Notes: generated by a model from the sequence alone, not told the origin. A DNA stretch of 64,000 nucleotides from an uncultured Candidatus Peribacteria bacterium (GCA_964563595.1 CAZLWR010000001.1:9857-73856); one strand, 5' to 3'. Shown: positions 37,729 through 55,465, numbered from the stretch's first letter. Numbers and translations are program-made.

Positions 37729-40700
37729 CTACTTCTTGATACTAAAGTTAATAATGCCTTCTTCTACGTCGCATTCTCCAGTATAATCTGGATTCTCAAT
37801 TGATCATGCGATGGTACCAAGTGTTTCTCTGGCGATGTAATCTCCATATTGAGATAAAATACTTTCAGCTTCAAAGCCAGATATAGTTAAACTAATTCTG
37901 TCGGAAACATCATAGCCAGTATTTTTTCTGGCTTCTTGGATGGATCTGATAAGTTCTCTTACGTATCCTTCCAGTTTTAACTCTGGTGTTATAGTTGTAT
38001 CTAGCATAAGAACTAGATTTCAAGAAGTTATAATATCTCCCGTAAGATCTCCTTTTTCGTATCTCATTTCGTATTCATCTGGCTGGAGTATAATGTCTGA
38101 CACTTTGACTGTATTGTCTGACAAAAGTTCAAACTCCCCGGATTTTGCAAGAGTATTTATTTCTGCAAATCTTGAGCCGAGCTTCTTACCTAACAACTTT
38201 GCATTTGGTATACAGATTCTATTTATTTGATTATCTAGTTTTGCATCTACGATGAGCTCTTTAACGTTTAACTCTTCCAAAATAGTAGTTTCGTATTTTG
38301 GATTGATTTGCTTATTAATTCTGAGTGATTGAAGGGGTTGCTTTACTTTGATTTTAAGCGAACCTCTCAGTGAAAGACCAAGCTCCACAATTGTTTTAGT
38401 TAAATCCATATCTTGTAGTAATGTAGTATCAACCAATGTGTTAATCTTACTCGAGTCAGTTCGATAATCCAAATGTACCGACTCTTTGTTTGTAAGATTT
38501 CTATAGATATACTCTGACAAGAAAGGCATAAAAGGTGCCAGTACTTTGCATAATTCTATAAGAACTACATATAATACATCATAACCAGACATCTTATCAC
38601 TATCATTTTCAGATTTCCAAAATCTGCGTCTATTGCGGCGTATATACCAATTAGTGAGATCATCCATAAAACTAAATAATGGGGCGGTTGCTTTTTGAAT
38701 ATTATAGGCTTCCATTTGTTTATTTACTTCCGTGATGAGTTCTGCTGTTTTTCAGATTATTCGTTTATCAAGATCGTTTTTAAATTCATAACCTACGAAA
38801 TCACTAATACTGTGCTTAGTTGGAGCGAACTTGTCTATATTTGCATAGGTAGTGAAAAATGAGAAGCTATTCCACAAAGGAAGATTCACTTTTCTGATTA
38901 TTTCTTTTCGTCCTTCTTCATAAAAATTCATATCACCTCAAACGAGTATAGGACTAGATGCAAAGTACATCCTGAGGGAGTCAGAACCATGTGTCTTCAT
39001 ACTTTCTTCCGGATCTGGATAGTTACCATAGGATTTGGACATTTTACGACCATCATTTCCTGCGAGCACACCCGTACAAACAACATTGGTAAAAGCAGGG
39101 TTATCAAAGAGCATGACTCACAATGCATGCATAAAGAAAAATCGACATCTCACTTGACCTAGATACTCTGCAACATAATCTGCAGGAAAGGATTGTTCAA
39201 ACTTTTCTTTATTTTCAAATGGATAATGTACTTGAGCATAAGGCATAGATCCGGATTCGAGCCATGGATCCAATACTTGCGTTATTCTCGTAAACTTTTC
39301 ACCTTCACGTATTCACCAAATTGCATCAATATAAGGACGATGAAGATCAAATTCTTTATTCTCTAAAGTATTTCGGTATTTCTCTTTTCAATTTAAAACT
39401 CTCTTTTCGAGTATTTTACTTCCTGTTTGATCCAATGCAAATATATCCTCTCTGCTGCCGCATACTATTATTTTCCCGCTTTCTGCTACCCAAACTGGCA
39501 TTGGAGTTGCCCAATATCTAGTACGACTAATACATCGGTCAGGAGCAGATTCCATGGATTTTAAAAATCTACCATGCTTGAGATGCTCTGGTACTCGATT
39601 TACTTTTTCATTTTCAGCGAACAATCTTTCTTTGATTGATTTGATGTCAATAAACCAGTTGTCTTGCGTTTTGTAGATTAATGGTACTCCTGTTCTTGGG
39701 CACATAGCAACCGAGTGAGTAATAGACTCTTTCTTGAAAAGTAATCACTTCTCTTTGAGTTTGTCCATCACAAGATCATTCGCATCGCGGTAGTATACTC
39801 CTTTCATATCTGCTATTTCCTCGGTATAGTTCCCTTGTTCGTCCAGGGCAGCAGATTGAGTTAAGTCATGTCTTTTTCCTGTTTGAAAGTCATCTTCTCC
39901 AAATTCAGGGGAGGTATGTACGATACCTGTTCCATCGCTGTCAGTCACATAATCAGCAAGGTATACTTTGTGATCATTAGTGCTTTGTCAGACATAGTAA
40001 TCAAATGGTGCTTGATAACTTAATCACTGAAGTTCGGCCCCTTTAGATGTATATATAATCACATATTGAGAAGGATCTTTATAAAACTTAGAAATAAGGT
40101 TTTCTGCTAGTATGAAATACTCCTGTAAGACTAGATCAAATAGCTGTAGGTATACTATATCTTTGTTCACTACGAGTGCCATATTTGCTGGTATAGTTCG
40201 TGGTGTCGTAGTTCGTGCTAAGAAGGAAAATGGGTACTTATCTCAATTACCTTGCAACGCTCAATGTTCTACTATTTGTTTGTAGTGGTAAAGATCTTTG
40301 AAGGTTCTTATCTCTTCTTCACTATCTATGATAGCATTATTTATGGTGAAATTTCGTCATAATTCGTTTTCACTTGTTCATATATATGTATACCCATATG
40401 CAGTATGCTTATCTGACTCTAATAACTGAATCTCTCAATGTATTATCTCCGCTTCATAAAACTCTAGATATGCTTTGTGTGAATTTCTAATATCTTTGTG
40501 GGCACACACTCTTTTTCAAACCTTTACGCTCACTCATAATTCTTCCTGTAACTCTCTTTCTAGGGCTTGAGTCGCAGTTTCTCATAAATCTACTTTACCG
40601 CCGGGAAACTGCCAATTTCCATGTTTTTGATTATAGACCGATAGTATTCCACCTTTACTATCTTTGATTATAGCCTGTGCATAGCATATAAATCCGTCTT

Positions 40701-41394
40701 GCGTGGCTTCATATTGATTTCAATCTGCTAAGGCAATGTCTTTTCAGATTAGTGGAAATTTCACAGTGATAGCCGGATCAGCAATATCTGCATAACTATT
40801 ATCCAATGCTACTTCATAGTTACTAATTGGCGTATTGAGTTTGGTAGAGTATAATGATACTCTCTTGCCTTCATAAATCATACCCTTATCTCGTAGAGAC
40901 TTGAATACTCGCATAACAGATTCCATGTAATCATTGTCCATGGTTTTGTAGGCGTTTTTGAAGTCCACCCATCTTCCGATATGATCTACATATCGCTCCC
41001 ATTGGTCACTGACATTTTTGGTGTAATCATAACATGCTTCAATAAACTCTTTAATACCATGTGCTTCAATTTCTTTGTTAGACTTATAGCCGAGTTTATC
41101 CTGTATTTTTTGTTCTACATAAATTCCATGGCAATCCCATCCTCGTACTCTTTCTATTCTTTTCCCTTTTTGCGTCCAGAATCTTGTTACGATATCCTTT
41201 ACTACGCTGCTCAATAGGCTTCCATAATGTGGTAAACCAGTAATGAATGGTGGTCCATCGTAAAATCTATAGGCATTCTCTTCGGATCTTGTTTCAATAG
41301 ACTTTTCGAAAATTTGATTATCTTTCCAATATTGTAAGATTTCTTCTTCTAACTGGAAGAAATTTGGAGAACTAGGAAGTTTTGGGAAAGACAT
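37729..41394 (-). CDS. ileS: isoleucyl-tRNA synthetase (type 2 / eukaryote-like) carrying an internal Nudix-domain insertion
   Basis: 1,221 aa in one frame. Motifs seen: [37 protein letters not shown] (Trp=CGA at 40213..40215 and 40198..40200), [17 protein letters not shown] (CGA 39535..39537), and GRKMSKS. Confidence 0.92.
40260..40735 (-). other. Nudix hydrolase domain inserted in IleRS between the ..ITVKFPLI.. strand and WTTTPWT
   Basis: The canonical Nudix box GX5EX7REUXEEXGU is read in frame: G-KVDL(G)[15 protein letters not shown](G)V at complement(40531..40599). It is preceded by [31 protein letters not shown]. Confidence 0.8.
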
Positions 41395-41579: not shown

Positions 41580-44500
41580 ATGTTTCAACGAAGTAAAAAA
41601 AAGATTATACTCTTTATAGTACTTATTGTTTTCAGTGTTGATACAGTACTATCTGGTACTATTTTTTGATGGAATAAAGCACGAGCAGCAGAAACAAACT
41701 TTACTGATATTATCAGCGTTTTCATTGATAAAAATATTGCTGCCAGTGCAGGAAGTGACCTTGATTGGTTTACGAAACAGTATTTGTGAAGAAATTACGA
41801 CAATGCTCAGGTAATGGTATTTCAAATTGACCCATCGGGAGTCTCTCCAGCGGATATGGCTAAGATCAATCAAAATCTCTATTTGGAATGAAAAAAATGA
41901 GTTCCTAGTAGGTTGATCGGGACCGTTCTTATTGGTGATTTGAAATTACCGGTGGTCAATAAAGACTGATTTGTTTTTTCAACTATCTATCCGTTAGTAG
42001 ACTTTGAAAAACCTAAATATTATTACGATAAGAATTCAGATTATTTTCTTTATCAGTCCGAAGGCAATAGCCAACCTGAAATACGGCATAGTGTGATTAA
42101 CTTTGCGAATGATACGAGTAAGTACAAAATATATCTAGATAAACTGAAACAGTACGCTGCGGATCCGCAGTCGTGGGTGAAACAAGGTGTATGGTATGAT
42201 GATATCATCCATCAAAAACAAACTCTCAACGCTGATAATATTTCTAAATACGTTAACAATGCTGTGTTTAGCGAAGACGTAATGTACAATAGATATACCA
42301 ACTTGATGGTTGATATCTTCCAGGCCTTGCACAATAGTGGAGTAGTAGATACTTTGGGTGACTATGATGATCAGGTTATTAATAATTTGGAAGATCCTTA
42401 TTACAATGATCCAGAATTTCAGGAAGTGAAAGATCAATATAAAGGTCAGATAGAAAAGTTTTGGAATTTGATAAAATCACTAAAATCATTGGTAGGTTCG
42501 AATAATACCGACTCTTCAGATCCAGAGCCTTCAAATTCTGCCTTGGGCACATTGCCCAATAGTAAGTTTATCAATACCTTATTTATTCAAAAGGTGGTTG
42601 ACGGATTTATGAAAGATTATGTAGAGTTGTATGGGACCCTCTATTTTGATACCAAAGAGAAAAGGTTGCAGCTTGGTGGAAGATATGTTGCTGGACAAAC
42701 AGGTACTGCAGTAGATGATCATATTACGATGACTAGTAGATGGGATGAAGTCAGTAAGCAATTGTTAGCTGATGCGAATACGAAGCTGGAAAAAGCACTT
42801 GATGATAAAATTGAGCAGGAGGGATATAGTATGAATGTCTTGGTTCCGACTAGAGTGGATATCAACGGTTGTAACAATGTAGAAACAAAAGACTATGATG
42901 CGAAGAAATCGTATGAGGTGTACTATTTTGGTAGGCCGGCTGAGGAAATTGATAACGCTGAGGATTTTGGTATTTACCGTGGTACCTTCAATAATATTAG
43001 ATCACTTGTAAAGCTTGATGGTTTCGACTATACCAGTTGGATGGATGCCCAAGAGAATCAATCAATTGGTGCAACCAGGGGAGAGAATGCAAGGGAAGTG
43101 GAAGCACATAGAGGCTATGATTTCTCATTGATAGAATACGATCAACAGGAATTTGAAAGGGTAAAGAGTATTATGCCTTTTAGTAAACATAAGAAAAAAA
43201 GAAAAAACATTGATAAGTTTATCAACTATTACCGAGCAGGATATACGCCACTCAATATTGACCCTAACAGTGAAGATGTGAGACTGAACCAAACAAGAAT
43301 GGACTATACACAGTTGTGGAATCCTTGGAAGAATAGAACATTGGGCGGACCTGTATTTGATATAGCTTGAAGTAGAATCACTACTCCTGATAGGAAAATT
43401 AATTTCAGTTATGGATCGGATGATGATGAAGACGAAGATGATGGAGATGAGGATACGCCGGATATTGTTACTAAGTCTTATTCAGGTTATTCTGATAGTT
43501 ATTTAGGAGCAGACTTTTTTGGAACTACCTTGCAGGTTGCCAGAAATAATGGTAAGTGGATAAAAGTTCAGAAAAGAAAAGTAAGAAAAAATGGTAAGCC
43601 TAAGAAAAATCGAGAGGATGTTAGACTATTTGCTTTGGGTGGATTATCTAGCAATGATGGTTTATTCCTCAAAAATCCTAATGATGACGGCTATATTACG
43701 ATAAATAGTTGTGCGAGCAATAACCGAAATCGTTATTTTAATTCAGTTGATAGTAGATATTTCCATAAATCACCGACTTTAGATGAGCTCTACGGTAAGT
43801 TCACCAATCTCAATAAGGTTAAAATGGATATCAGCTTCGGCTGTGACTCTCCTGATAATGGCAATTATGCTGAGGGTCAGCAGTGCCAAGGAATAGAGTT
43901 TAGACGAAGTGATTTCTTACCGGGCTTTAATGATAATTCCGCCTCTCCCTGGTATTTATCTAAGGATGATTATTTTATAACCTGAGGCAAGATTTATTTC
44001 AATAGCACTGCGAAGTTTTACTTTGCTGGTCAAGATATTGATTTGAGTAACGTAATAGGTGAACTTACTGGTGGAAAAATAAAATTTCAATATGATGGTA
44101 GAAATATAGCACTAACGTATGCGAATGCTACTTTTGATTGCGAAGAGCTGGAGACCGACGTAGAAGAAGGTCTTGCTTGTGTGGGTTTGAGTTTCGAGAT
44201 AGATCATAGGAAGCACTTTATAGATTATAAATACTTTGACTATGATACTACTGGTCAGGTTATTTCATTTTATCCCTGAGCAAAAATTACTGTCATGAGC
44301 AAGGATTATCCCTTGTGAGGCATGGTGGTCCAAGTCAATGGTGATAAGTGAGAGTTCTCTGGCAAACAACTTCAAATAGGTGGTATGAATGAATTCACCC
44401 TCGAGAGACCGGTTGATTCTCCTAGGTATGTCAATTTCCAGGGAATAGGAGGGGATAAGTTGACTTGGGTCTATCCGAATATGTGGAAAGTGGCGGTCTA

Positions 44501-47500
44501 TAAAGAAGTAGATGGTAAAAGAGTACTTAAAACCATAGAGGAGATACAGGATGCTTTAAAACAATATCTGCGTGATAAAGTAAAAGATTACAATAATCAG
44601 CTTCAAGACCAAAGAAATAAGAGATTTGATTACTATAATGGTAACGAGTGAGGAGCTGCAAGAAGAAACCGAATTGATAAATTTGATAATTATGATACGA
44701 GTATTTCGCCTTTAGTGCATGAAGATAATACACAGCTTAATCTGAGATCTTACAAGTTGTTACCTGAAAATTTCTTGATTGATGGCTTGGCGACGACACG
44801 AGAAGGAGAAGCAATCAGCAGCAACGATATGCTTAAGGTTATTGCTCAGCAGCTCTATCATCAAAATGTGATGCGGTTGCAACTGCCAATTGACACCAGT
44901 AAAAAAGTCTTGGATGAAGTGAGTTTGATCCAATCGTTTGCCGATATTAATCATAAATCCAGGGAACTTTATTCCGAATACTTAACTGAGCAACCAAAAG
45001 ATGCTTTTGAGAATGTTCGTGCATATGATTTAGATTTACCTTATTATAATCTTAGTGGTTACGAAGCTGGATATATCAATAGTGATGGAGCGGACTATGT
45101 GCAGTTTCAAACAGTACCGCCACTAGTGAAGCTTATCCAAAAACAAAAAGCAAAAGATACTCCTCCAAAACCAAAGACGGCTGAAGATCTAGACACCAGC
45201 AGATGTGCGAATCTTATACCTGCAAGTTATGTGGTGTCCCTATCAAAACGACCTGCGGCATTTAAGTGCTGGCTTTCTGATATCACTTCTTCAAAACTTT
45301 TTGATGTAAAGATTTCTTTTGCTGGCTCTGCAAATGGTGTCTTTTGATTGGGTAGTGATGAAAACAGTTCTGGACGACTGGAAGATGCTTGGCAGCAAGG
45401 TACTGATCAGTTTAAAACCGAGCGGAAAAACTATTCTCAAGGACGAAGGGCTACGGTGAAATGAGAAGATACGGGTATCGCTCCTGATGAAAGAAGAGAA
45501 TTGGCGAAACAATTAGATAATCTGATCATCAAACCTACTAGTTTTTCTCCTGCTTTGACTGCGTGAGTGAGACTAGCGATTTCCACCAAAGAGGATTTGT
45601 GATCTTATACTATTCAGATTTCTAGTACGGGTGCCAACTGTTTGAAATATGTAAATGGGTCTAACTTGTGCCAATCACCGCAATCTTTACAAATAGCATG
45701 ACTGTATTCCAGCAATTATGATTTTACTTTCACAAAGTTGTTTGAAGGGGTTGGCGATATGAATATCCAAGTTAAAATTTGTAAATCTAAATGTGTTTAT
45801 AAAAACATAGTAATTGCTGTCCAGCCATCTGAAATTAGTAAATTAAAGTTTGTACACCCTATGGGTGATCAGATCTATCCGGTGGCGAGAGGTGTGCAAC
45901 TGCCTATGATGACCAATGCTTTTGATGCATATGGTAATAGCATTGGAACTACCTTATATGATTTTATTGTAAAGACTTCTCATAAAGGGTGACTCATCTA
46001 TGATAATGAACTTACTCAACAATTTCAAATCAGTTCATTCACCGATGCAGGGTTTCTACTAGATACGATTTCTGTGAATGGAAATAAAGAGACAATAACT
46101 ATTGCTCCAAATCCTTCTTTTGTCGCTCTCAATCCTTCATTACCAAAACAAGAACTTACGTTAGATATCGTGGATCCGAATGTGAGTATCATTACTAGTT
46201 CTACCGTAGTTCAGTTACCAGAAAGTAGTAGCGATTTAGAAAAGACAAGTGATGGCGTCTCTTACACAGATATTTCTAAACTGACTAAGATAAGAGTGGT
46301 AGTTAATAATGGTCAAAAGTTATATGCTGTTGTCTCAGCAAAGTCTCTATGAGGTAAGTTTATTGCTGGTATCAAAGGTACAAAAAAAATAGCTAAACCG
46401 AACAATCAATATGCTACTGTGGAGACATTCATTCCCGTAGAGGAGGTGCTTTCTACTGGAGGTTTTGTAGAGTTTTATCTATATCCCACTATGAAAGCAG
46501 GAGAAGATAGCCTCCAGATTCAAGTTGGTCAATCAAGTAAAAATATTACCCTTGAGGTAAAACCGGCAAGTCCCAAAAAGACCAGCATCAATATTGATAC
46601 GGATGTAATGGATTTGCAATGAAAGGTTGATGGTACTATAGCAGTCACTGATATCTGGTGAAATATATTACCAACTTCTGTGAATGTATTATTATGAGCA
46701 TATGGCAATATTACTGTTGACGGAGTAAATGGTTCTGGCAGTGTTATTGCTATTGCTTGAGAAAAGCAAATTACTGTTCGCCCGGTATATCCCTGAGGAC
46801 AGGGTTACTTATTTGTTACTATACAATGAGTCCCATTTGATCAACAATTTCCTGATTATCGTAGTATACTTGTGCAAAATAGAGCACGACCTATAGAAGA
46901 TATAAATGTAGCTTACCTCAATCTTTACGGCTCAGATCGAGCGAACCAAGTTGATAAGCAAACAAATAAGATAATCTGACCAGCAGTTCTTACGGACAGT
47001 AATAAAACTTTATCGCTTACTACTCAGTATGGAGATCCATCTCAAATCTACAAAACATTGTTCGCAGTAGATAAGAAATGACAGATCAAACAATGATGAA
47101 CAGAGAGTATTGAACTCGCTTTGTCTAATGAACAACTTGGATATCATACTGAACAGTATGGGTTCTTACCTATCGGTCAAGCCAGTAGTTTTGGTATGCA
47201 AGTAGTTTCAAGTTTGGATGGAGGGCTTGCCGGAAATGCTTGGGCTGTTAAGGTTTGAGAAATCAGTTCTACCATACAATCAATTGTGGTTGTAGGCAAG
47301 CAGTTGCGTGTCAATGATCAGATTATTATAGATTTGCAAAATGCTGTATGGGATACCAAGGTAAGTATAAAGTATGCAGGAAATATAGGAAACTATACCA
47401 AGCGAAATATATATTATGGTAATGACATTGTTGCTCAGTTTATTCAAACATATGCTTTGGATACTACCTATACTGATATGCGAAGATCTCTTGTGGATCC

Positions 47501-50500
47501 TACAAGGTATACAGTGGCGGATGTTTTGGTATCTCAATACCATGATCAAGGAATCGGTATACTGGATAATGCTGCTAACTTGAGCGACGAAGATAAAAGC
47601 GTTCCTAGTATCCAACATAGTGAGGATAGTAAATATAATATTGGATTTGGTGACACCTTTAAACCGCTTACACAGTTTGCTCAAGGTAAATCAGTGGGTG
47701 AGTCTTCTGTCGCCTTTGCAAGTGAGTTTGTTCTCAATCTGTGAGATCCGACCTACCGTATTTATGAAAAAAATAAACTAGTAGATCATACAAATTATGA
47801 TGGCTGACTTGGTGTTACTGCTTTCGCTGATCCCGATAAAATTATCCAACAGGTTATGGACATAAATCGAGATAAGCAGGGCGATAGGGATTTATTGGTA
47901 GTATACGCAGACGGTTCGGTAAGGCTATTGATATCAAAAGGTAACAAACAATATGTTAAAGTATGAGACTTGGCATATATACAAGACGGCATCCAAAAAC
48001 TCTATGTAGGTGATGGTGATGGTGACGGTTATCAGGATCTCTTTGTGCATACGATGGCCAATCAGTTGAGATTCTATAAAAATTATGAGTGAGAAAGAAT
48101 TGATGTAGATGGTTATCCTATTTGTCTAGACATAGAGGGTGGGGATAAAAATCTAAATGGTGTCTGGCAATGGTTTCTTACAGATCCAAACAATGATAAA
48201 GTTACCGATATTGTTATAAATGATAAAAATAATCAGATCAAATTATTCTTGGGATGAGGATGATCTACTTTATTTAATTTATGATTTGGTTGAGGAAATT
48301 ATATATCCAAAGATAAGTATGCTTGCGACCCGGATTGGAAATCCAGACAGGAAGGTAAAATTGCTACTATCAAGTCATTCGCCCCAAAGCTTGATGGCAC
48401 GCAAATCACTGACGAATCTTTGGTGCATCGAAATGGTCTTAGCACGTCAGACACAGGAACTATTAATCCTAATGTGGATTCTGCAGATGACCTGGAAGAT
48501 CCTGATAGGATTAATGTCGACATACAATTGGGTAATTCTAAAAAACCAAAAGATGTTATAAATCTCGTGAAGAGTCAGCTTATGTCTACTTTTAATCCGC
48601 AAACATGGATTACGGAATATACAAATTCATTAGATAACACCATTACTCTTGATGCTGCCTATAAGCCAGTATATGAAACAATTCCTGGCGAGACCGTTTA
48701 CAAACAATTGCAGTCGTTACTTACCACCGATAAATTGGCTTCCTATAAAACCTTTACTGACTTAAATGGTGGTAAATTAGAAGATGGCGATATAGTGAAA
48801 ATAAATATTACTATCCAATGAAAGTGAGCAGCTAAGGCAACTTATATTGAGAAACTCTCTGGTCCGCGGGAAATTCCCGTCAGTGGTACCCAGCAGGTAT
48901 GATTTTTCCAAGGTAACTTGAATTCAGATTATACTTTCATTTTGCAGCCTTGACCGAGTTATGTGTTTATGATTGATAATATAAACGTATGAGCAACAAC
49001 AAACTTTGGTTACCATGTAGTATATAAATCACAACAAATAGTAACTATTCAGCATGGAGAGTGATTTACTGATGTCAATGGAGTAGGTGGATCTATTGGT
49101 AAAAACCTTATACCTCATGCTTATGCCCAATCGGATAATACGCCGCCTTGGCTTGAGATAACACCTTTGGACGGATGTGCCAAGTTTAAATGGAAGATTA
49201 CTACTCCCAATATATGACCCATTTTATCAAATTGGTTTGTAGAACAAAAGATTGACCTAGAACAACAGATAAAAGATAAACAGAAACAAGACGAAGAGAA
49301 ATATACCGAAGGCATGAGTGATACGTTTTCTGATCTGGTAAGTGATACAAAGGATGAAATAAATAGTGAGCTAAAAGATACGTATCTGAGAGAATCCCGG
49401 AGACAAAAAGGTTTATTGAAAGACGACCCCGCACTCAAAGCTATTGAACAATTTGCTTATACTACTGAAGCACTCAGCAATCTCAGTATCAATAATAATC
49501 TGAAAATAGGAGGTTTTGGTGCGGATATTGATCAGTTGTTGGATAATAAAATTGGTGAGCTTACAAAGGGACTTTGTGAAGGATTTAAAGTTGGGCAAAA
49601 AAACTGTTCAGGTATACCTATTTTGAGTAGTCTTCCGCGAAATATGGCTTTCTTGTCGCCTGGAGATATGCAGGTTATGGGATGTAAAATTTGGAAAGAT
49701 AAGGGTATACCATTGTTGCGGTTCCCCGCAACCTTACAAACCCCAGTCGGTCCGGTGCCTTTCATAGGACCTATTGGCCAAAAATGACCGGGAGATGGAT
49801 TCTATCGATTTGGTGGATGAACTTATACGTCTTTGATCAGAATGTATGTCTCACCCACTTTAACAGCAAAGCTGGGAATTGGTATCTGTTTCGGTCCTTA
49901 TACAGCCGGTATTAAATTACCAAAACCCTTTAAGGATATTATGGGCAATTGTATCGTATTTGCAGTAGATCCAGGACTTGGTAAATGTGAGCAGGTGAAT
50001 GAATGATGACCAAGTGACTATAGTTCTTATGTTATCAATAAGGAAACAAAAGAACTAGATGATACCAATACTTGTAATGATGACATCACTGTTAAGAATT
50101 CTCCACTGAAGTTAGTAGAGACCTCAGTAAATACTGCTGATAACTGGCTTGATTCTGTTCAATGAGAGCATGGGTTGGTAATAAAACTTGGATGACACGC
50201 CAACCTCACCAACTACAATAGTATTGCTCTCAGCGATTTTGTTACTAAGGTAAGACTTGAGGGTGGCAATCCTTTAGATTTACAGATAAAGGGAGCAAAT
50301 GATAAAGGTTTAGTGAGCTGTCTTATCAATCAGTTCGCTGATAACCAGATTAGATATATCATCAATAATCTGACTAGTATGGATATCAATATTGTCTTAC
50401 CGGATTTGAGAGGCTTGGGAAGACAAATAGTTGGAGTAGCAAATGTATTCAATAACAATGCTTGGCAAGAAAAGCAAAGCAACGAAGCGTTTTCTGATTA

Positions 50501-53500
50501 TGCTTCTCAATATGAAAAAACTCTCAAACATAATACTGGTAGTCTCAAACAATTTGTAACAGCATGACAGAGTAAACAAAAACTTACCAAAAGACTCAAT
50601 ACGGTTCTATCAAATCCTTTTGAGAAATTAGCATTATTTTTCGCTGATAGTGAATTAGTAAGGATCAGTAGTAGAGATGTGTTGGTAGAAATACCTTGGA
50701 TATATACGGAGGACATAGTTACTCTCAGATGAGTATATAGAGCTTGGCGAGAGAGAAATCAGCCGGTCCTCAAAGAACGACAGGACTTTGCTATTGATTT
50801 TGTGAAACAATGTGAGGCGAAAACGGACGATTTCGAGAGACAAAATTGTATGATAAGAGCCAACAAAATTATACAACTCAATAATCAACTAGGCCAATTT
50901 GAAAAATCTATCAGAAGGAATCTTCAGGTATTGGATGAATATGGTGAATTTCCAAGTAAGGTATATGACCTATTGCATGGTTATGACACTTATATTTATG
51001 ATCTATTTAATTTTGCTTATGGTACTATTGATGCAGTAACGAGCTGGCTATCGAAGCTTGCAAGAGGATTTGAGGCTTGGGTAGACTTTATTGTATCCTT
51101 GATAGGTATTCTTAAAACCCGGCAGGTATTGATTGATTTTTCAGTCAACTGGAAAGAGAAATGCAGCAAATGTACGGTAGATAATTATTCGGCTTATAGT
51201 TGCTCCTTTAGTAAGTTTTGTCCCAAATTACCGGTATTTAATATACCTCCATTCAAAATACCAGATATTACAATTGATCTGAGCAATATAGATTTACGTA
51301 CTGATATTGTATTACCGAAGTTTAGGTTCCAGCCTAAAAGAATCTGATTATTTGATAATATTAAACAATTTGGTTTGCCTGATGTGCCGTATCCTACGCA
51401 AATTGGATGGCTAGATAACGAAATCAACCTTAAGCTACCTTCTATCCCGCTGATACCATCACCGCCAGATTTGGATGCAATTAGCTTACCAAGCTTTATT
51501 CCTCAAATCAAATTCAAAGGTCCTACACTGCCACCAGCACCGAAGATTCCTAAGATAGCCCCAGAACTTGGCTTAGCAATTGATATCGCTGATTTCATTG
51601 GAAGAATATATTGTTTGGTAAAGTGAGGTATTGGATTGGTCGGAGAAGCAGGGCTCAAGTCAAGGATTGAACAAATGACTCAAAGAACTTGGGCAGTAGA
51701 ACCATTCGATAGTCTCAAGTTACTTATACCAAATGCTCCTTTGCAAACTCTCAATCTCTTCAAACCCCAAAGGGACGAGGGAGGCAGTTTAGATTTCAAA
51801 CTGGAAGCCTTTGCGGATGTTAAAATGTACTTTGATGGAGTGTATGGATTATTTGATGGAATAGCCGAAAGTATCAATACTCAAACAAGGAAGGTGCAAA
51901 GAACGAGTACTGAGGTACCTGCTTTACAGACAGTAGGTGAATTTATAGACAAGGCTAGTTCAACATTCATTGATGCTACTGATAAAGCAACAAACGAGAG
52001 TATTCAGACCAATATTAATATTAACCCTTTTGGTTACGTAGAAACATCAGATTATCATTCAATCAATAGTAAGATCAAATGAGATCTTGCTTATTTCACT
52101 GAAAAAGATGATCAGCCATTTGCACAGGGAAGAAAATTGCTTGCTGCTGATATTGTTAGATCCTATGATTTAGATACCACTGTGAGAATAAATACAAAAG
52201 GTATGGATGAAATAAAAACTCAAGTTAGTGAGGTATTAAATCAAGAGTTGAAAGAAAATAGTGAAGTGAAGAATTGGATACAACAGGATTGGGACGGTTG
52301 GCTTGATCACATCATAAGTACACAGTATGTAAGCGACGATAAAACACTGTATTCCTTAAAAACAAACCTTCTGGATATAGATCAACAGACTTTGGACTAT
52401 GTTGGTAATTACGATATCGCTAAAGAGTATGTTGCTACCGAAAAAACAGTGATAGATGGGTATGTCAACGGTCTTGCAAATTCGGATTATGAAACTTTAG
52501 GTATGCAAAAATCAGATTATGATAGATCAGCAGAATATTTGAATACTCTGAAACAGAACGTTGATCTGGCACGAAACAATGTAAATGCTCCCAAACAAGA
52601 AATTGATTCACAAATGCCAGCGAATGTGGATGTTAATTGATGAGAATGAAAGCAACAAATCAATTGTACCTTGTGTAATAAAGAACCTGGTGATCCTGTG
52701 CTACTTTCTCAACAAGGCGGTAACACTAATTCACCTACGAGCAATACCTTTGCACTTGGAGGAGTAGATGATCCAACTAGATATCTCAATGGATACTTTG
52801 TGAAAGGAGATGACGATAATTACCACAATGTTATTACCAATATGGATAAGTGAGAACAACTTAGTAAGAAGAGTTTCGAGAAGGATATTACCAATGATGG
52901 GTTGCATGAAGTTGTCTTGCGGGATGAACACAATGTGTATATCAAATATGCAGATAAAATTTCAAATACTTCTAACCCAAAACAAGGGAAGCATGTTGCA
53001 AACGTTGTTACTATCGTAATAGATTCTGTTGCTGATATGGAGAGCCAAGTAGATGCTTACGGCTATTATGGCAGTCGAGCTGGTAAGACAAAAATTCGAT
53101 CTCAGGAGCGGATGCCTAAGGAATGGGAAGTAGCATGACAAGCTTATCAGTCTATGACTTATACGGTTTCCAATGAAATTGAGTCTGCGGGTGACGGCGT
53201 AGTGGGATATGCAGTGAGATATACTGATACTATTACGAAGACGCTTAGTAAAGATGCCGATTATGATTATATGATTATTTTGGATACCGCATTGCAGGGC
53301 AAACCACTTAGCGATATTGATATTGATGGCGTCCATTTGCAAGCCGATGAGGTGCAGATTATATATGTTGATCCGGGTCAGCAAAGTATCAGTGCTGTTT
53401 TGAGCAATTTACCTAGGAGATGGTACTATAGTCAGATCACTAAGTTATCGAGTAAACAACAGGTAAGTAAATTATTCGGATTTATTCCTTTCGGATCAAA

Positions 53501-54569
53501 AGATACTCTGACAAGAATTTATAAATCCTCTCCGCGATCCAATAATGAAACTGCGGGCATGCAGATCATTGCTGATACGAGTGCTCCTTACGCTGATGTG
53601 AAATTGGTTCGTACTCAAAAACCACTTGTTGTTGCTCAAGGAGATAGTATGTTTGGCACGATAAAAACGTATTACACGCTTAGCGGTAGTTGGTATGATG
53701 ACAGTAAGGTAATTAAAAATCGAGTATACAGCGGTAACGTACTTATTGCATCCGGTGATCATGATCTTATATTCGTATCTGGCATCTATTCTGATAAGCC
53801 AGTTAAACTTACTTACCAATTGGTGGGACAGGATAGTGCTGGTAACATAGGGCAGAAAACCGTAGAAGTAAATCTATGATTGCCAAAGATTACCGTCGAT
53901 AATGTTGATACAAATACTATATGACAATCTGATGTACTCTCGAGTTTGAACACTGATATAGATAAGTGAACTGTGCAATTTGTGAGGGTGAGAAATGGAG
54001 TAGAATCTGTTTTGGAATCCGTATTTGGTAAGAAGAAATTATTTGATACCATCACAGATCAATTAGTAGTTACTTGAGGTAAATTTGGGTTTAAACAAGA
54101 TATAGGCTTTTACGATGCAGATGGTAAGTATCTCAATGTAAGCCTAACTCCTGCTGGTCAGATAGTAAATACTAATCCTGCAATAAAAGTTACTGTGGAT
54201 TTCGTGGATAATGTTCCTAAGATTGTATTATCAAAAGATAATCAGGAATTATATCGTATCTACCTTAAACCAAAAGCATTTGATAGCGCTAAAGGTATCA
54301 CTATTTTAAATGGGGCATACGACACGTTGAGAATGCCAGTAAGTACGCCTGCGCTTGGTCAGTTTGCCGGTGGTGTATGTATCAAACCAAAGAACGGTGT
54401 ATGTGAGATTATGATTGCTCCGTCAGGCTATATATTTATTTCTAAACCATATCATAGATTATATAGAGGATACTATAAGTTTGAATCTGGGAAAGTAGTC
54501 TATGGCATACAAAAAGGTAAAGAAACGGTAGCTGAAGTAAGAGTAGAAGTAGAACCAGTCAAAAACTAA
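41580..54569 (+). CDS. giant signal-anchored surface protein (4,329 aa), putative adhesin / host-interaction protein
   Basis: All 20-plus standard-code fragments between 42093 and 54569 are in frame 0. I read every inter-fragment gap and found only TGA, never TAA/TAG. The start is ATG 41580 (an upstream in-frame TAA lies at 41469) and the N-terminus is MFQ-W-SKKKIILFIVLIVFSVDTVLSG. It ends at TAA 54567..54569. Confidence 0.85.
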
Positions 54570-54601: not shown

Positions 54602-55465
54602 ATGATAGTACTTTATTCTAAAGATATTATTGCTCAAAAAAAACTCTTTCTACAAGAGCATTTTGCTACTCAACAATATAAAAGTAAGTACCTAGCTATA
54701 TTGTATTTCGGTCATGACCCTGTTATATCCGTATACGTAAGGAACAAAATCAAATTTGGATATGATGTTGGATTGGAAGCTAGGTTGTTTGGGCAGGAAA
54801 AGTATTATACGCTTGAAGATGCATATGAGTGCATAGAGTCTTTAAATAAGGATAAACACTGCGTAGGAATCATTATCCAATTGCCTCTTCCTTCTTATCT
54901 GCAAGATTATCAACAGTCTTTGTGTAATGCTATTGCTATTGGAAAAGATGTAGATGCTATGACTAGTGCTATGATGGGTAAGATAGCAATGGGTTCCCCA
55001 GATGCAATATATCCTGCGGCGGTATGAGCCAGTATACAATTATTAGATTTTTATAATCTGAATGCCATAAGGGGTAAGCAGATAAGTATTATCGGGCAGA
55101 GTAATTTGGTAGGGAAACCATTTGCTTTGTATTGCATTAATCAGTGAGCCCAGGTTCATAGTTTTGGTGTAGACGGTGATCCTGAAGTTATGAAAGAAGT
55201 TTGTAGAAATTCAGATTATATTATATCAGCAACCGGAGTTATTGAATTGGTTACTAAAGAGTATGTAAGAAACGATAAAACCCAGATTATCATCGATATT
55301 GGTTATGGTATCAAAGATGGTAAAGCTTTTGGTGACGTTGCATTTGAACAGGTACAAAACTTGGTCCATGCTATTACACCCGTACCTGGTGGGATATGAC
55401 CTATGTGTGTATGTCAGTTGTTTGAGAACATACTATTACTTACAAAGGATCTTTCTGAGAGATAA
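54602..55465 (+). CDS. folD: bifunctional methylenetetrahydrofolate dehydrogenase/cyclohydrolase
   Basis: Motifs seen: YVRNKIKFGYDVG, GIIIQLPLP, IIGQSNLVGKP, and ITPVPGGI-G-PM. Confidence 0.88.

Follow-up and report, generated by a model that had tools for sequence, protein, structure and literature searches.

Ultra-small bacteria of the lineage considered here depend on a host or prey cell, and to our knowledge it has not been described how they hold on to it. In Candidatus Vampirococcus lugosii, the fibrous cell surface and the attachment to the host were attributed to giant membrane proteins, in which integrin, fibronectin and DUF11 domains have been reported, and the largest protein of this organism, VAMP_16_20 (4,163 amino acids), is listed as a hypothetical protein without a domain map (PMC8080830). 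Here, a giant gene is analysed that is encoded on a stretch of 64,000 nucleotides (the window, to which all nucleotide positions refer) from an uncultured Candidatus Peribacteria bacterium (GCA_964563595.1, CAZLWR010000001.1:9857-73856). In a preliminary description, positions 45738-48240 of the window had been proposed to encode adhesin-type modules, namely invasin/intimin-like immunoglobulin (Ig)-type repeats followed by FG-GAP/VCBS-like calcium-binding repeats. With moderate confidence, we read this interval as belonging to a giant envelope protein that is conserved and encoded by a single-copy gene; it would represent a middle section of the portion outside the cytoplasm, in which a spacer of beta sandwiches is combined with a platform of propeller-type blades that would serve contact with a host or prey cell.

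Translation with table 11 broke the interval into a set of short open reading frames; with TGA read through, a single frame of 4,329 codons was obtained (41580..54569, plus strand; 12,990 nucleotides, including 64 in-frame TGA codons). The gene is open only when TGA is read as glycine and CGA/CGG as tryptophan, and both assignments were verified. The genome (1.14 Mb in 81 contigs, approximately 89% complete) encodes a tRNA(UCA) of which the acceptor stem (G1-C72, C2-G71, G3-C70) and the discriminator base (U73) constitute the glycine identity set, as in tRNA-Gly(GCC), besides a separate tRNA-Trp(CCA), and TGA is therefore assigned to glycine. Moreover, tRNA(UCG) and tRNA(CCG), located on genome contigs 6 and 39, have an anticodon stem in common with tRNA-Trp(CCA). 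At the 35 CGA/CGG codons of the giant gene, homologues carry tryptophan (54), arginine (47) or aromatic residues, a pattern that is also displayed by the TGG codons; the 47 arginines probably reflect CGA/CGG codons of the homologues themselves that were read by the standard table. The AGR/CGY codons correspond to arginine (213) or lysine (61) in the homologues, tryptophan being absent among the residues listed. CGA and CGG act as tryptophan codons in this gene, and all later translations were made with table 25 supplemented with CGA=W and CGG=W. The recoded glycine and tryptophan codons also explain the hyphenated letters in peptides that had been written as 'DIN-W-DKQ' and 'W-G-N'. Database copies of the giant family contain R or W errors at CGA/CGG and TGA sites.

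The encoded protein has one hydrophobic segment, an N-terminal signal or anchor at residues ~8-24, and the remainder is predicted from its sequence to be extracytoplasmic. LPXTG, a thioester motif and an RTX array were not found in a motif search of the giant protein, and the gene contains no tandem DNA repeats at all; all modules are unique and the protein is conserved from end to end, without repeat expansion. The six peptides quoted in the preliminary description all lie in the frame of this single gene.

The FG-GAP/VCBS-like repeats proposed for the second half of the interval were borne out. Three blades are encoded on the plus strand, at residues ~2089-2133 (47844..47978), ~2138-2181 (47991..48122) and ~2195-2223 (48162..48248, i.e., ending 8 nucleotides past the reported interval); all three are supported by the structure model, hhalign and the acidic loop, and in addition by Pfam matches (blades 1 and 2) or by the Pfam tally (blade 3). 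In the whole protein, PF13517 (FG-GAP_3, formerly VCBS) scored 26.9 bits, which equals its gathering score, with a match to residues 2099-2156, and cut pieces of the protein reached 28.2 and 30.2 bits, above the cut-off of 26.9. Among 31 relatives, the same family was matched by 27, with a best E of 1.7e-12. PF01839 (FG-GAP) remained below its gathering score of 22.1 in the giant protein (11.1 bits, E 0.39) and was found in 16 of the 31 relatives at E <= 0.1 (best 6.1e-8). The other tallies among these relatives were BBS2_Mid 16, Beta-prop_BBS7 6 and Itfg2 1, and all Pfam families that match the blades across the relatives are propeller families of the FG-GAP lineage. No NCBIfam family, including the VCBS repeat of the TIGR01965 type, matched the whole protein at E <= 1. 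Blade-to-blade comparison by hhalign gave P values of 6e-4, 1.2e-5 and 1.7e-4, and the three units are mutually homologous.

Each blade carries an acidic loop, and the pattern D-x-[DN]-x-[DN]-x-x-x-D is matched in the 4,329 residues by these three Asp loops only, of which the key (first and last) Asp residues are kept in 28-31 of the 31 relatives. The peptides concerned are DINWDKQGDRDLLVVYADGSV (residues 2094-2114, 47859-47921), LYVGDGDGDGYQDLFVHT (residues 2141-2158, 48000-48053) and LTDPNNDKVTDIVINDKNN (residues 2200-2218, 48177-48233), all on the plus strand; the range 48006..48038 that had been given for LYVGDGDGDGYQDLFVHT indeed contains its D-x-D-x-D-G-x-x-D loop, at 48012-48038. The loop of blade 1 (residues 2096-2104, N-W-D-K-Q-G-D-R-D) is partly degenerate compared to the family pattern, that of blade 2 is canonical (D2145-G-D-G-D-G-Y-Q-D2153) with both terminal Asp residues invariant in 31/31 relatives, and that of blade 3 (D2202-P-N-N-D-K-V-T-D2210) is canonical with an invariant D2210 (31/31). 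The loop consensus of the family is canonical in all three blades: D-x-N-x-D-G-x-x-D, D-x-D-x-[ND]-G-Y-x-D and D-x-[DN]-x-D-[GK]-x-x-D. In the blades of integrin alpha, hairpins that bind Ca2+ show this acidic loop pattern, and the Asp loops of the giant protein may likewise bind Ca2+. The blades belong to the better conserved regions of the protein, with an identity of 0.57 versus 0.41 overall.

The AlphaFold2 model of residues 1780-2330 was mixed, with a mean predicted local distance difference test score (pLDDT) of 64 and a predicted template modelling score (pTM) of 0.41; within it, residues 2089-2223 fold into approximately 11 strands, which are arranged as three groups resembling blades and have a pLDDT of 65-88. 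The best PDB matches of the model were to ITFG2 (3.8-3.9 Å over 139 columns, 17-19% identity), followed by BBS9, BBS1 and CRTAC1 and then by generic propellers, and in the viral fold library the best match was a phage protein annotated with a VCBS repeat, the others again being generic propellers. Some of the Foldseek alignments to seven-bladed propellers extended over approximately 450 columns at a high root-mean-square deviation. The beta-propeller suggested earlier as a structural check was thus recovered in part: three propeller-type blades with a match to ITFG2 are seen, but a closed propeller is not.

For the first half of the interval (residues ~1390-1770), AlphaFold2 was run on an alignment of 16 sequences, and the resulting model (mean pLDDT 85, pTM 0.72) has approximately 34 strands and hardly any helix. 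Domain boundaries were taken from the strand pattern of this model. A beta-hairpin (residues 1392-1414; 45753..45821, plus strand), defined by its model strands, leads into an Ig-like beta-sandwich domain of eight strands (domain 1, residues ~1417-1511, 45828..46112), which is followed by a larger beta-sandwich of approximately 13 strands (domain 2, residues ~1522-1662, 46143..46565), with a conserved YLYPxxKAGxDxIxI in its C-terminal strands, and by a second Ig-like beta-sandwich of nine strands (domain 3, residues ~1665-1767, 46572..46880); all three are on the plus strand and are based on the model and on conservation. The hairpin contains an invariant C1401-x3-C1405 (window 45780-45794), which resembles a disulfide staple. 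Foldseek comparison of the model with the PDB gave 471 matches at E <= 0.001, and the top of the list consisted entirely of tandem beta-sandwich arrays (Foldseek probability 1.0), including E. coli alpha-2-macroglobulin, integrin legs, SbsB, SbsC, invasin, FdeC, complement C3/C5 and nectin. Invasin (1cwv) ranked sixth (E 2.2e-9) and FdeC (4e9l) reached E 2.2e-8, with other sandwich arrays ranking equal or higher.

Sequence searches did not assign these sandwiches to a named family. Scans of the Ig region of the giant protein against Pfam and NCBIfam yielded nothing Ig-like; Big_1, Big_2 and Invasin_D3 (PF02369, PF02368, PF09134) gave no match at E <= 10 in pieces of 200-240 residues, and no Ig-type Pfam family recurred among 18 relatives at E <= 1, where a single Big_11 match was found at 0.04. 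A sequence search of the PDB with the segment produced no match, and with the family profile of this region the sole PDB match was an Ig-like domain of an S-layer protein (4uid), at a weak E of 0.03. In profile-profile comparison, domains 1-3 were not significantly related (P 0.05-0.19) and are not recognisable as repeats of each other. The Ig-like domains of the preliminary description are therefore supported as a fold, by the pLDDT and the Foldseek matches to tandem sandwiches, but not as members of a named Ig family. With the modelled domains resembling those of macroglobulins, S-layer proteins, integrin legs and invasin about equally, the label 'invasin/intimin-like' is too specific, and its assignment to Big_1/Big_2 is not supported: no significant Ig-type Pfam match was found in the protein, none recurred in its 18 relatives, and invasin was only the sixth fold match.

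The D-x-[YW]-G-N motifs on which that label had been based correspond to two invariant turns, D1449-x-x-G-N1453 in domain 1 and D1691-x-x-G-N1695 in domain 3, each of which directly follows a strand. These four Asp and Asn residues account for 4 of only 6 invariant columns among 18 relatives that are 22-49% identical. Counted in the giant protein itself, D-x-[YWF]-G-N occurs twice versus 0.2 copies expected from shuffles (P = 0.02), an excess that is weak when taken alone. The quoted peptides of this half are MTNAFDAYGNSIGTT (residues 1444-1458, 45909-45953), AVTDIWGNILPTS (residues 1688-1700, 46641-46679) and LLGAYGNITVDG (residues 1704-1715, 46689-46724), all on the plus strand. As to the Ig segments of about 90-100 residues that had been described, the two motif-bearing domains measure approximately 95-105 residues, but a third, of approximately 140 residues, lies between them.

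Approximately 300 residues between the Ig-like and FG-GAP modules (residues 1770-2090) had been passed over. They begin with a strongly conserved linker motif, AYLNLYGSDW (residues 1778-1787, 46911..46940, plus strand), that the model left unresolved (pLDDT below 50), and continue with a confidently modelled beta-rich domain of approximately 16 strands (residues ~1824-2000, 47049..47579, plus strand; pLDDT 80-94). This domain has the lowest conservation in the interval (0.24 identity versus 0.41 for the whole protein), two orthologues (L005/P0004 and P0005) have lost approximately 100 of its residues, and it had no match in the viral fold library; it is a candidate specificity domain. It is followed by a conserved segment of 80 residues (residues 2004-2083, 47589..47828, plus strand; identity 0.50) with the consensus VPSIQxSxD..IGFGDxFK..GKSVG..ASEFxINxGDP, for which AlphaFold2 gave no fold (pLDDT 24-36) and Pfam no match. 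Across the class, this segment always accompanies the blades (profile positions 14-243).

A search with residues 1330-2400 against 1.84 billion representatives (E <= 0.001) matched 178 proteins, dozens of which are 3,300-5,300 residues long and align at a corresponding place relative to their length; residues ~2010-2230 were the best-covered part of the query. Word-based searches returned 17 relatives, from Absconditabacterales and Gracilibacteria, and a metagenome scan found no relative. Genome counts were based on the conserved core (residues 1990-2300), which has one copy in the genome studied here. Within the order, the core was detected in 114 of 121 sampled genomes, nearly always as a single copy, including 76 of the 79 high-quality genomes and 35 of 37 genera, and within the class in 39 of 61 genomes (E <= 1e-10), in open frames of 3,000-7,900 residues. 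Many of these class frames contain no TGA, and relatives that use the standard code therefore also possess the core. The highest conservation in the giant protein, an identity of 0.71-0.74 among ten orthologues, was observed elsewhere, at window positions ~51120-51660 (residues 3181-3360).

In the window, the giant gene is located between IleRS (37729-41394, minus strand) and FolD (54602-55465, plus strand), and this order of an upstream IleRS gene on the opposite strand, the giant gene and a downstream FolD gene is kept in four related genomes; the Absconditabacterales loci L002, L004 and L005 retain it with neighbouring proteins that are 40-85% identical. Since the neighbours are the same in related genomes, the giant gene behaves like a core gene that has been inherited within the lineage, and its product is a conserved, single-copy and syntenic member of an Absconditabacterales giant-protein family. 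The genes on either side are housekeeping genes; their products are aminoacyl-tRNA synthetases, a hydrolase and FolD.

Among the Gracilibacteria, a distant family member, P0167 (5,316 residues), has true Invasin_D3 matches (E 1.7e-17) approximately 600-800 residues before its FG-GAP core, and also carries an SLH domain; the order of its parts, Ig-type and then FG-GAP, is the same as in the giant protein. Its residues ~1430-2930 comprise SLH, bacterial TSP3, Invasin_D3, Glyco_hydro2_C5 (Ig-like), FG-GAP and DUF11 domains, and the domains of the family are thus far easier to recognise in some relatives with the standard code. The Ig-region profile did not match the distant relatives P0164-P0168, including the Invasin_D3 region of P0167.

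Along the chain, the hairpin, the three Ig-like sandwiches, a short linker, the fast-evolving beta domain, the 80-residue segment and the three FG-GAP blades follow one another. In the reading that we favour, the beta sandwiches would constitute a rigid spacer, a role that such domains have in invasin, in integrin legs and in S-layer proteins. The three blades would bind Ca2+ via their Asp loops and, together with the conserved segment that precedes them, offer a stable platform for interactions. A partner-specific surface would be expected first of all in the variable beta domain beside this platform, and the giant protein as a whole may take part in building the fibrous cell surface and in contacting the host or prey cell, an adhesion role that is plausible. 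Several observations weigh against this interpretation. No pilus, secretion or host-interaction gene adjoins the giant gene; the structure alignments are shallow (16 sequences), and some of their rows have W for Gly due to mistranslation in the source database. In loop 1 of this protein, N and Q take the place of the D of the family, no more than three blades can be recognised, in a ring that is not closed in the model, and no cryptic extra blades were found by sequence in residues 1820-2003, 2004-2088 and 2227-2300. Moreover, the blades are conserved above the average of the protein, which would suit a structural core at least as well as a variable tip for host recognition.

This conservation would also agree with modules that belong to a structural envelope scaffold, a fibre of S-layer-like or wall-associated type from which the cell surface derives its shape; the sandwiches and Ca2+-stabilised blades would then be used for self-assembly and would not themselves be a host adhesin, an explanation that we regard as possible, although rather unlikely. 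It is in line with the presence of SbsB and SbsC among the best fold matches, with the S-layer domain 4uid being the sole PDB profile match, with the SLH domain of P0167, with a near-universal, single-copy and syntenic gene that resembles a housekeeping envelope gene, and with the attribution of the Vampirococcus fibrous surface to giant proteins (PMC8080830). However, neither SLH nor another wall-binding domain was found in the giant protein by the Pfam and NCBIfam scans, and the variable beta domain adjoins the blades, as would be expected for partner-specific recognition; the roles of scaffold and adhesin are, moreover, not mutually exclusive. A protease trap composed of macroglobulin (MG) domains and related to bacterial alpha-2-macroglobulin is suggested by the top fold match of the Ig region (E. 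coli alpha-2-macroglobulin, 4rtd, E 9e-11), next to which many complement and CD109 MG arrays are found, but these matches have low TM-scores (0.18-0.28), close to the values of unrelated Ig-like arrays, the sandwich domains number only three, and the protein has no A2M-family Pfam match and no thioester CxEQ anywhere. This reading was rejected for its lack of a thioester motif and of A2M domains, and we consider it highly improbable. Next to negligible is the probability that the motifs match by chance, in a protein that is rich in Asp, Asn and Gly and has no defined domains there: D-x-[YWF]-G-N by itself is only weakly beyond chance and the whole-protein Pfam score is exactly at the cut-off, but the motif residues are invariant among relatives of 22-49% identity, FG-GAP_3 is found in 27 of the 31 relatives searched for it, the all-beta model is confident and the blades are detectably homologous to each other, by which this explanation is refuted.

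A more specific proposal, which we put forward tentatively and consider doubtful, is that the conserved 80-residue segment and exactly three Ca2+-loop blades represent a new kind of interaction module that is conserved throughout the class. Its propeller would be completed with the variable domain of approximately 16 strands (four cryptic blades and three recognisable ones adding up to seven) or with other copies of the protein, and the variable half would set host specificity, with structural stability coming from the conserved half. The strand arithmetic is such that 16 and approximately 12 strands would make 4 + 3 blades.

The domain map of this near-universal giant surface protein provides concrete fragments, i.e., a sandwich spacer, a variable beta domain and a calcium-type FG-GAP unit. 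It also carries a practical warning, in that the gene and its motifs are readable only with TGA as Gly and CGA/CGG as Trp, and the W/R mistranslation in many database copies may lower detection by standard domain searches. As a discovery the finding is modest, because Ig-like and FG-GAP domains are commonly combined in bacterial surface proteins of large size, and giant membrane proteins with integrin-type domains had already been noted in the lineage.

Among known systems, the RTX adhesins (LapA, SiiE, MpIBP) are similar in being very large exported proteins with Ig-like domains and Ca2+-type acidic loops, but the giant protein differs from them by lacking tandem DNA repeats and an RTX array and has one isolated GGxGxD; an RTX-adhesin or repeat-expansion reading was rejected in view of the absence of tandem repeats. 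With invasin and intimin it shares a rod of tandem Ig-like sandwiches, a D-x-x-G-N-type turn after a strand and a fold match at E 2e-9, and a true Invasin_D3 is present upstream of the FG-GAP core in the distant relative P0167. However, the giant protein and its 18 close relatives lack a hidden Markov model (HMM) match to Big_1, Big_2 or Invasin_D3, the fold match is no better than that to MG, S-layer and integrin-leg domains, and none of the inverse-autotransporter parts (an N-terminal outer-membrane beta-barrel translocator, LysM, a C-terminal tip of the C-type lectin kind) was revealed when the full-length protein was scanned with Pfam.

The likeness to FG-GAP_3/VCBS proteins, including the propellers of integrin alpha, ITFG2, BBS and CRTAC1, lies in three tandem units of approximately 45-60 residues modelled as four-stranded blades, in the D-x-[DN]-x-[DN]-G-x-x-D hairpin loop, in an HMM match at or above the cut-off and in the superposition on ITFG2 at 3.8 Å. 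Unlike these propellers, which usually have seven blades, the giant protein has three recognisable ones without a closed ring in the model, and its blades are preceded by the conserved 80-residue segment and embedded mid-way in a non-repetitive protein of 4,329 residues. Finally, the giant proteins of Vampirococcus (PMC8080830) are alike in lineage, in size and in predicted membrane or surface location, and integrin-type as well as Ig/fibronectin-type domains occur among the ten longest proteins of that organism, for which host attachment was proposed.

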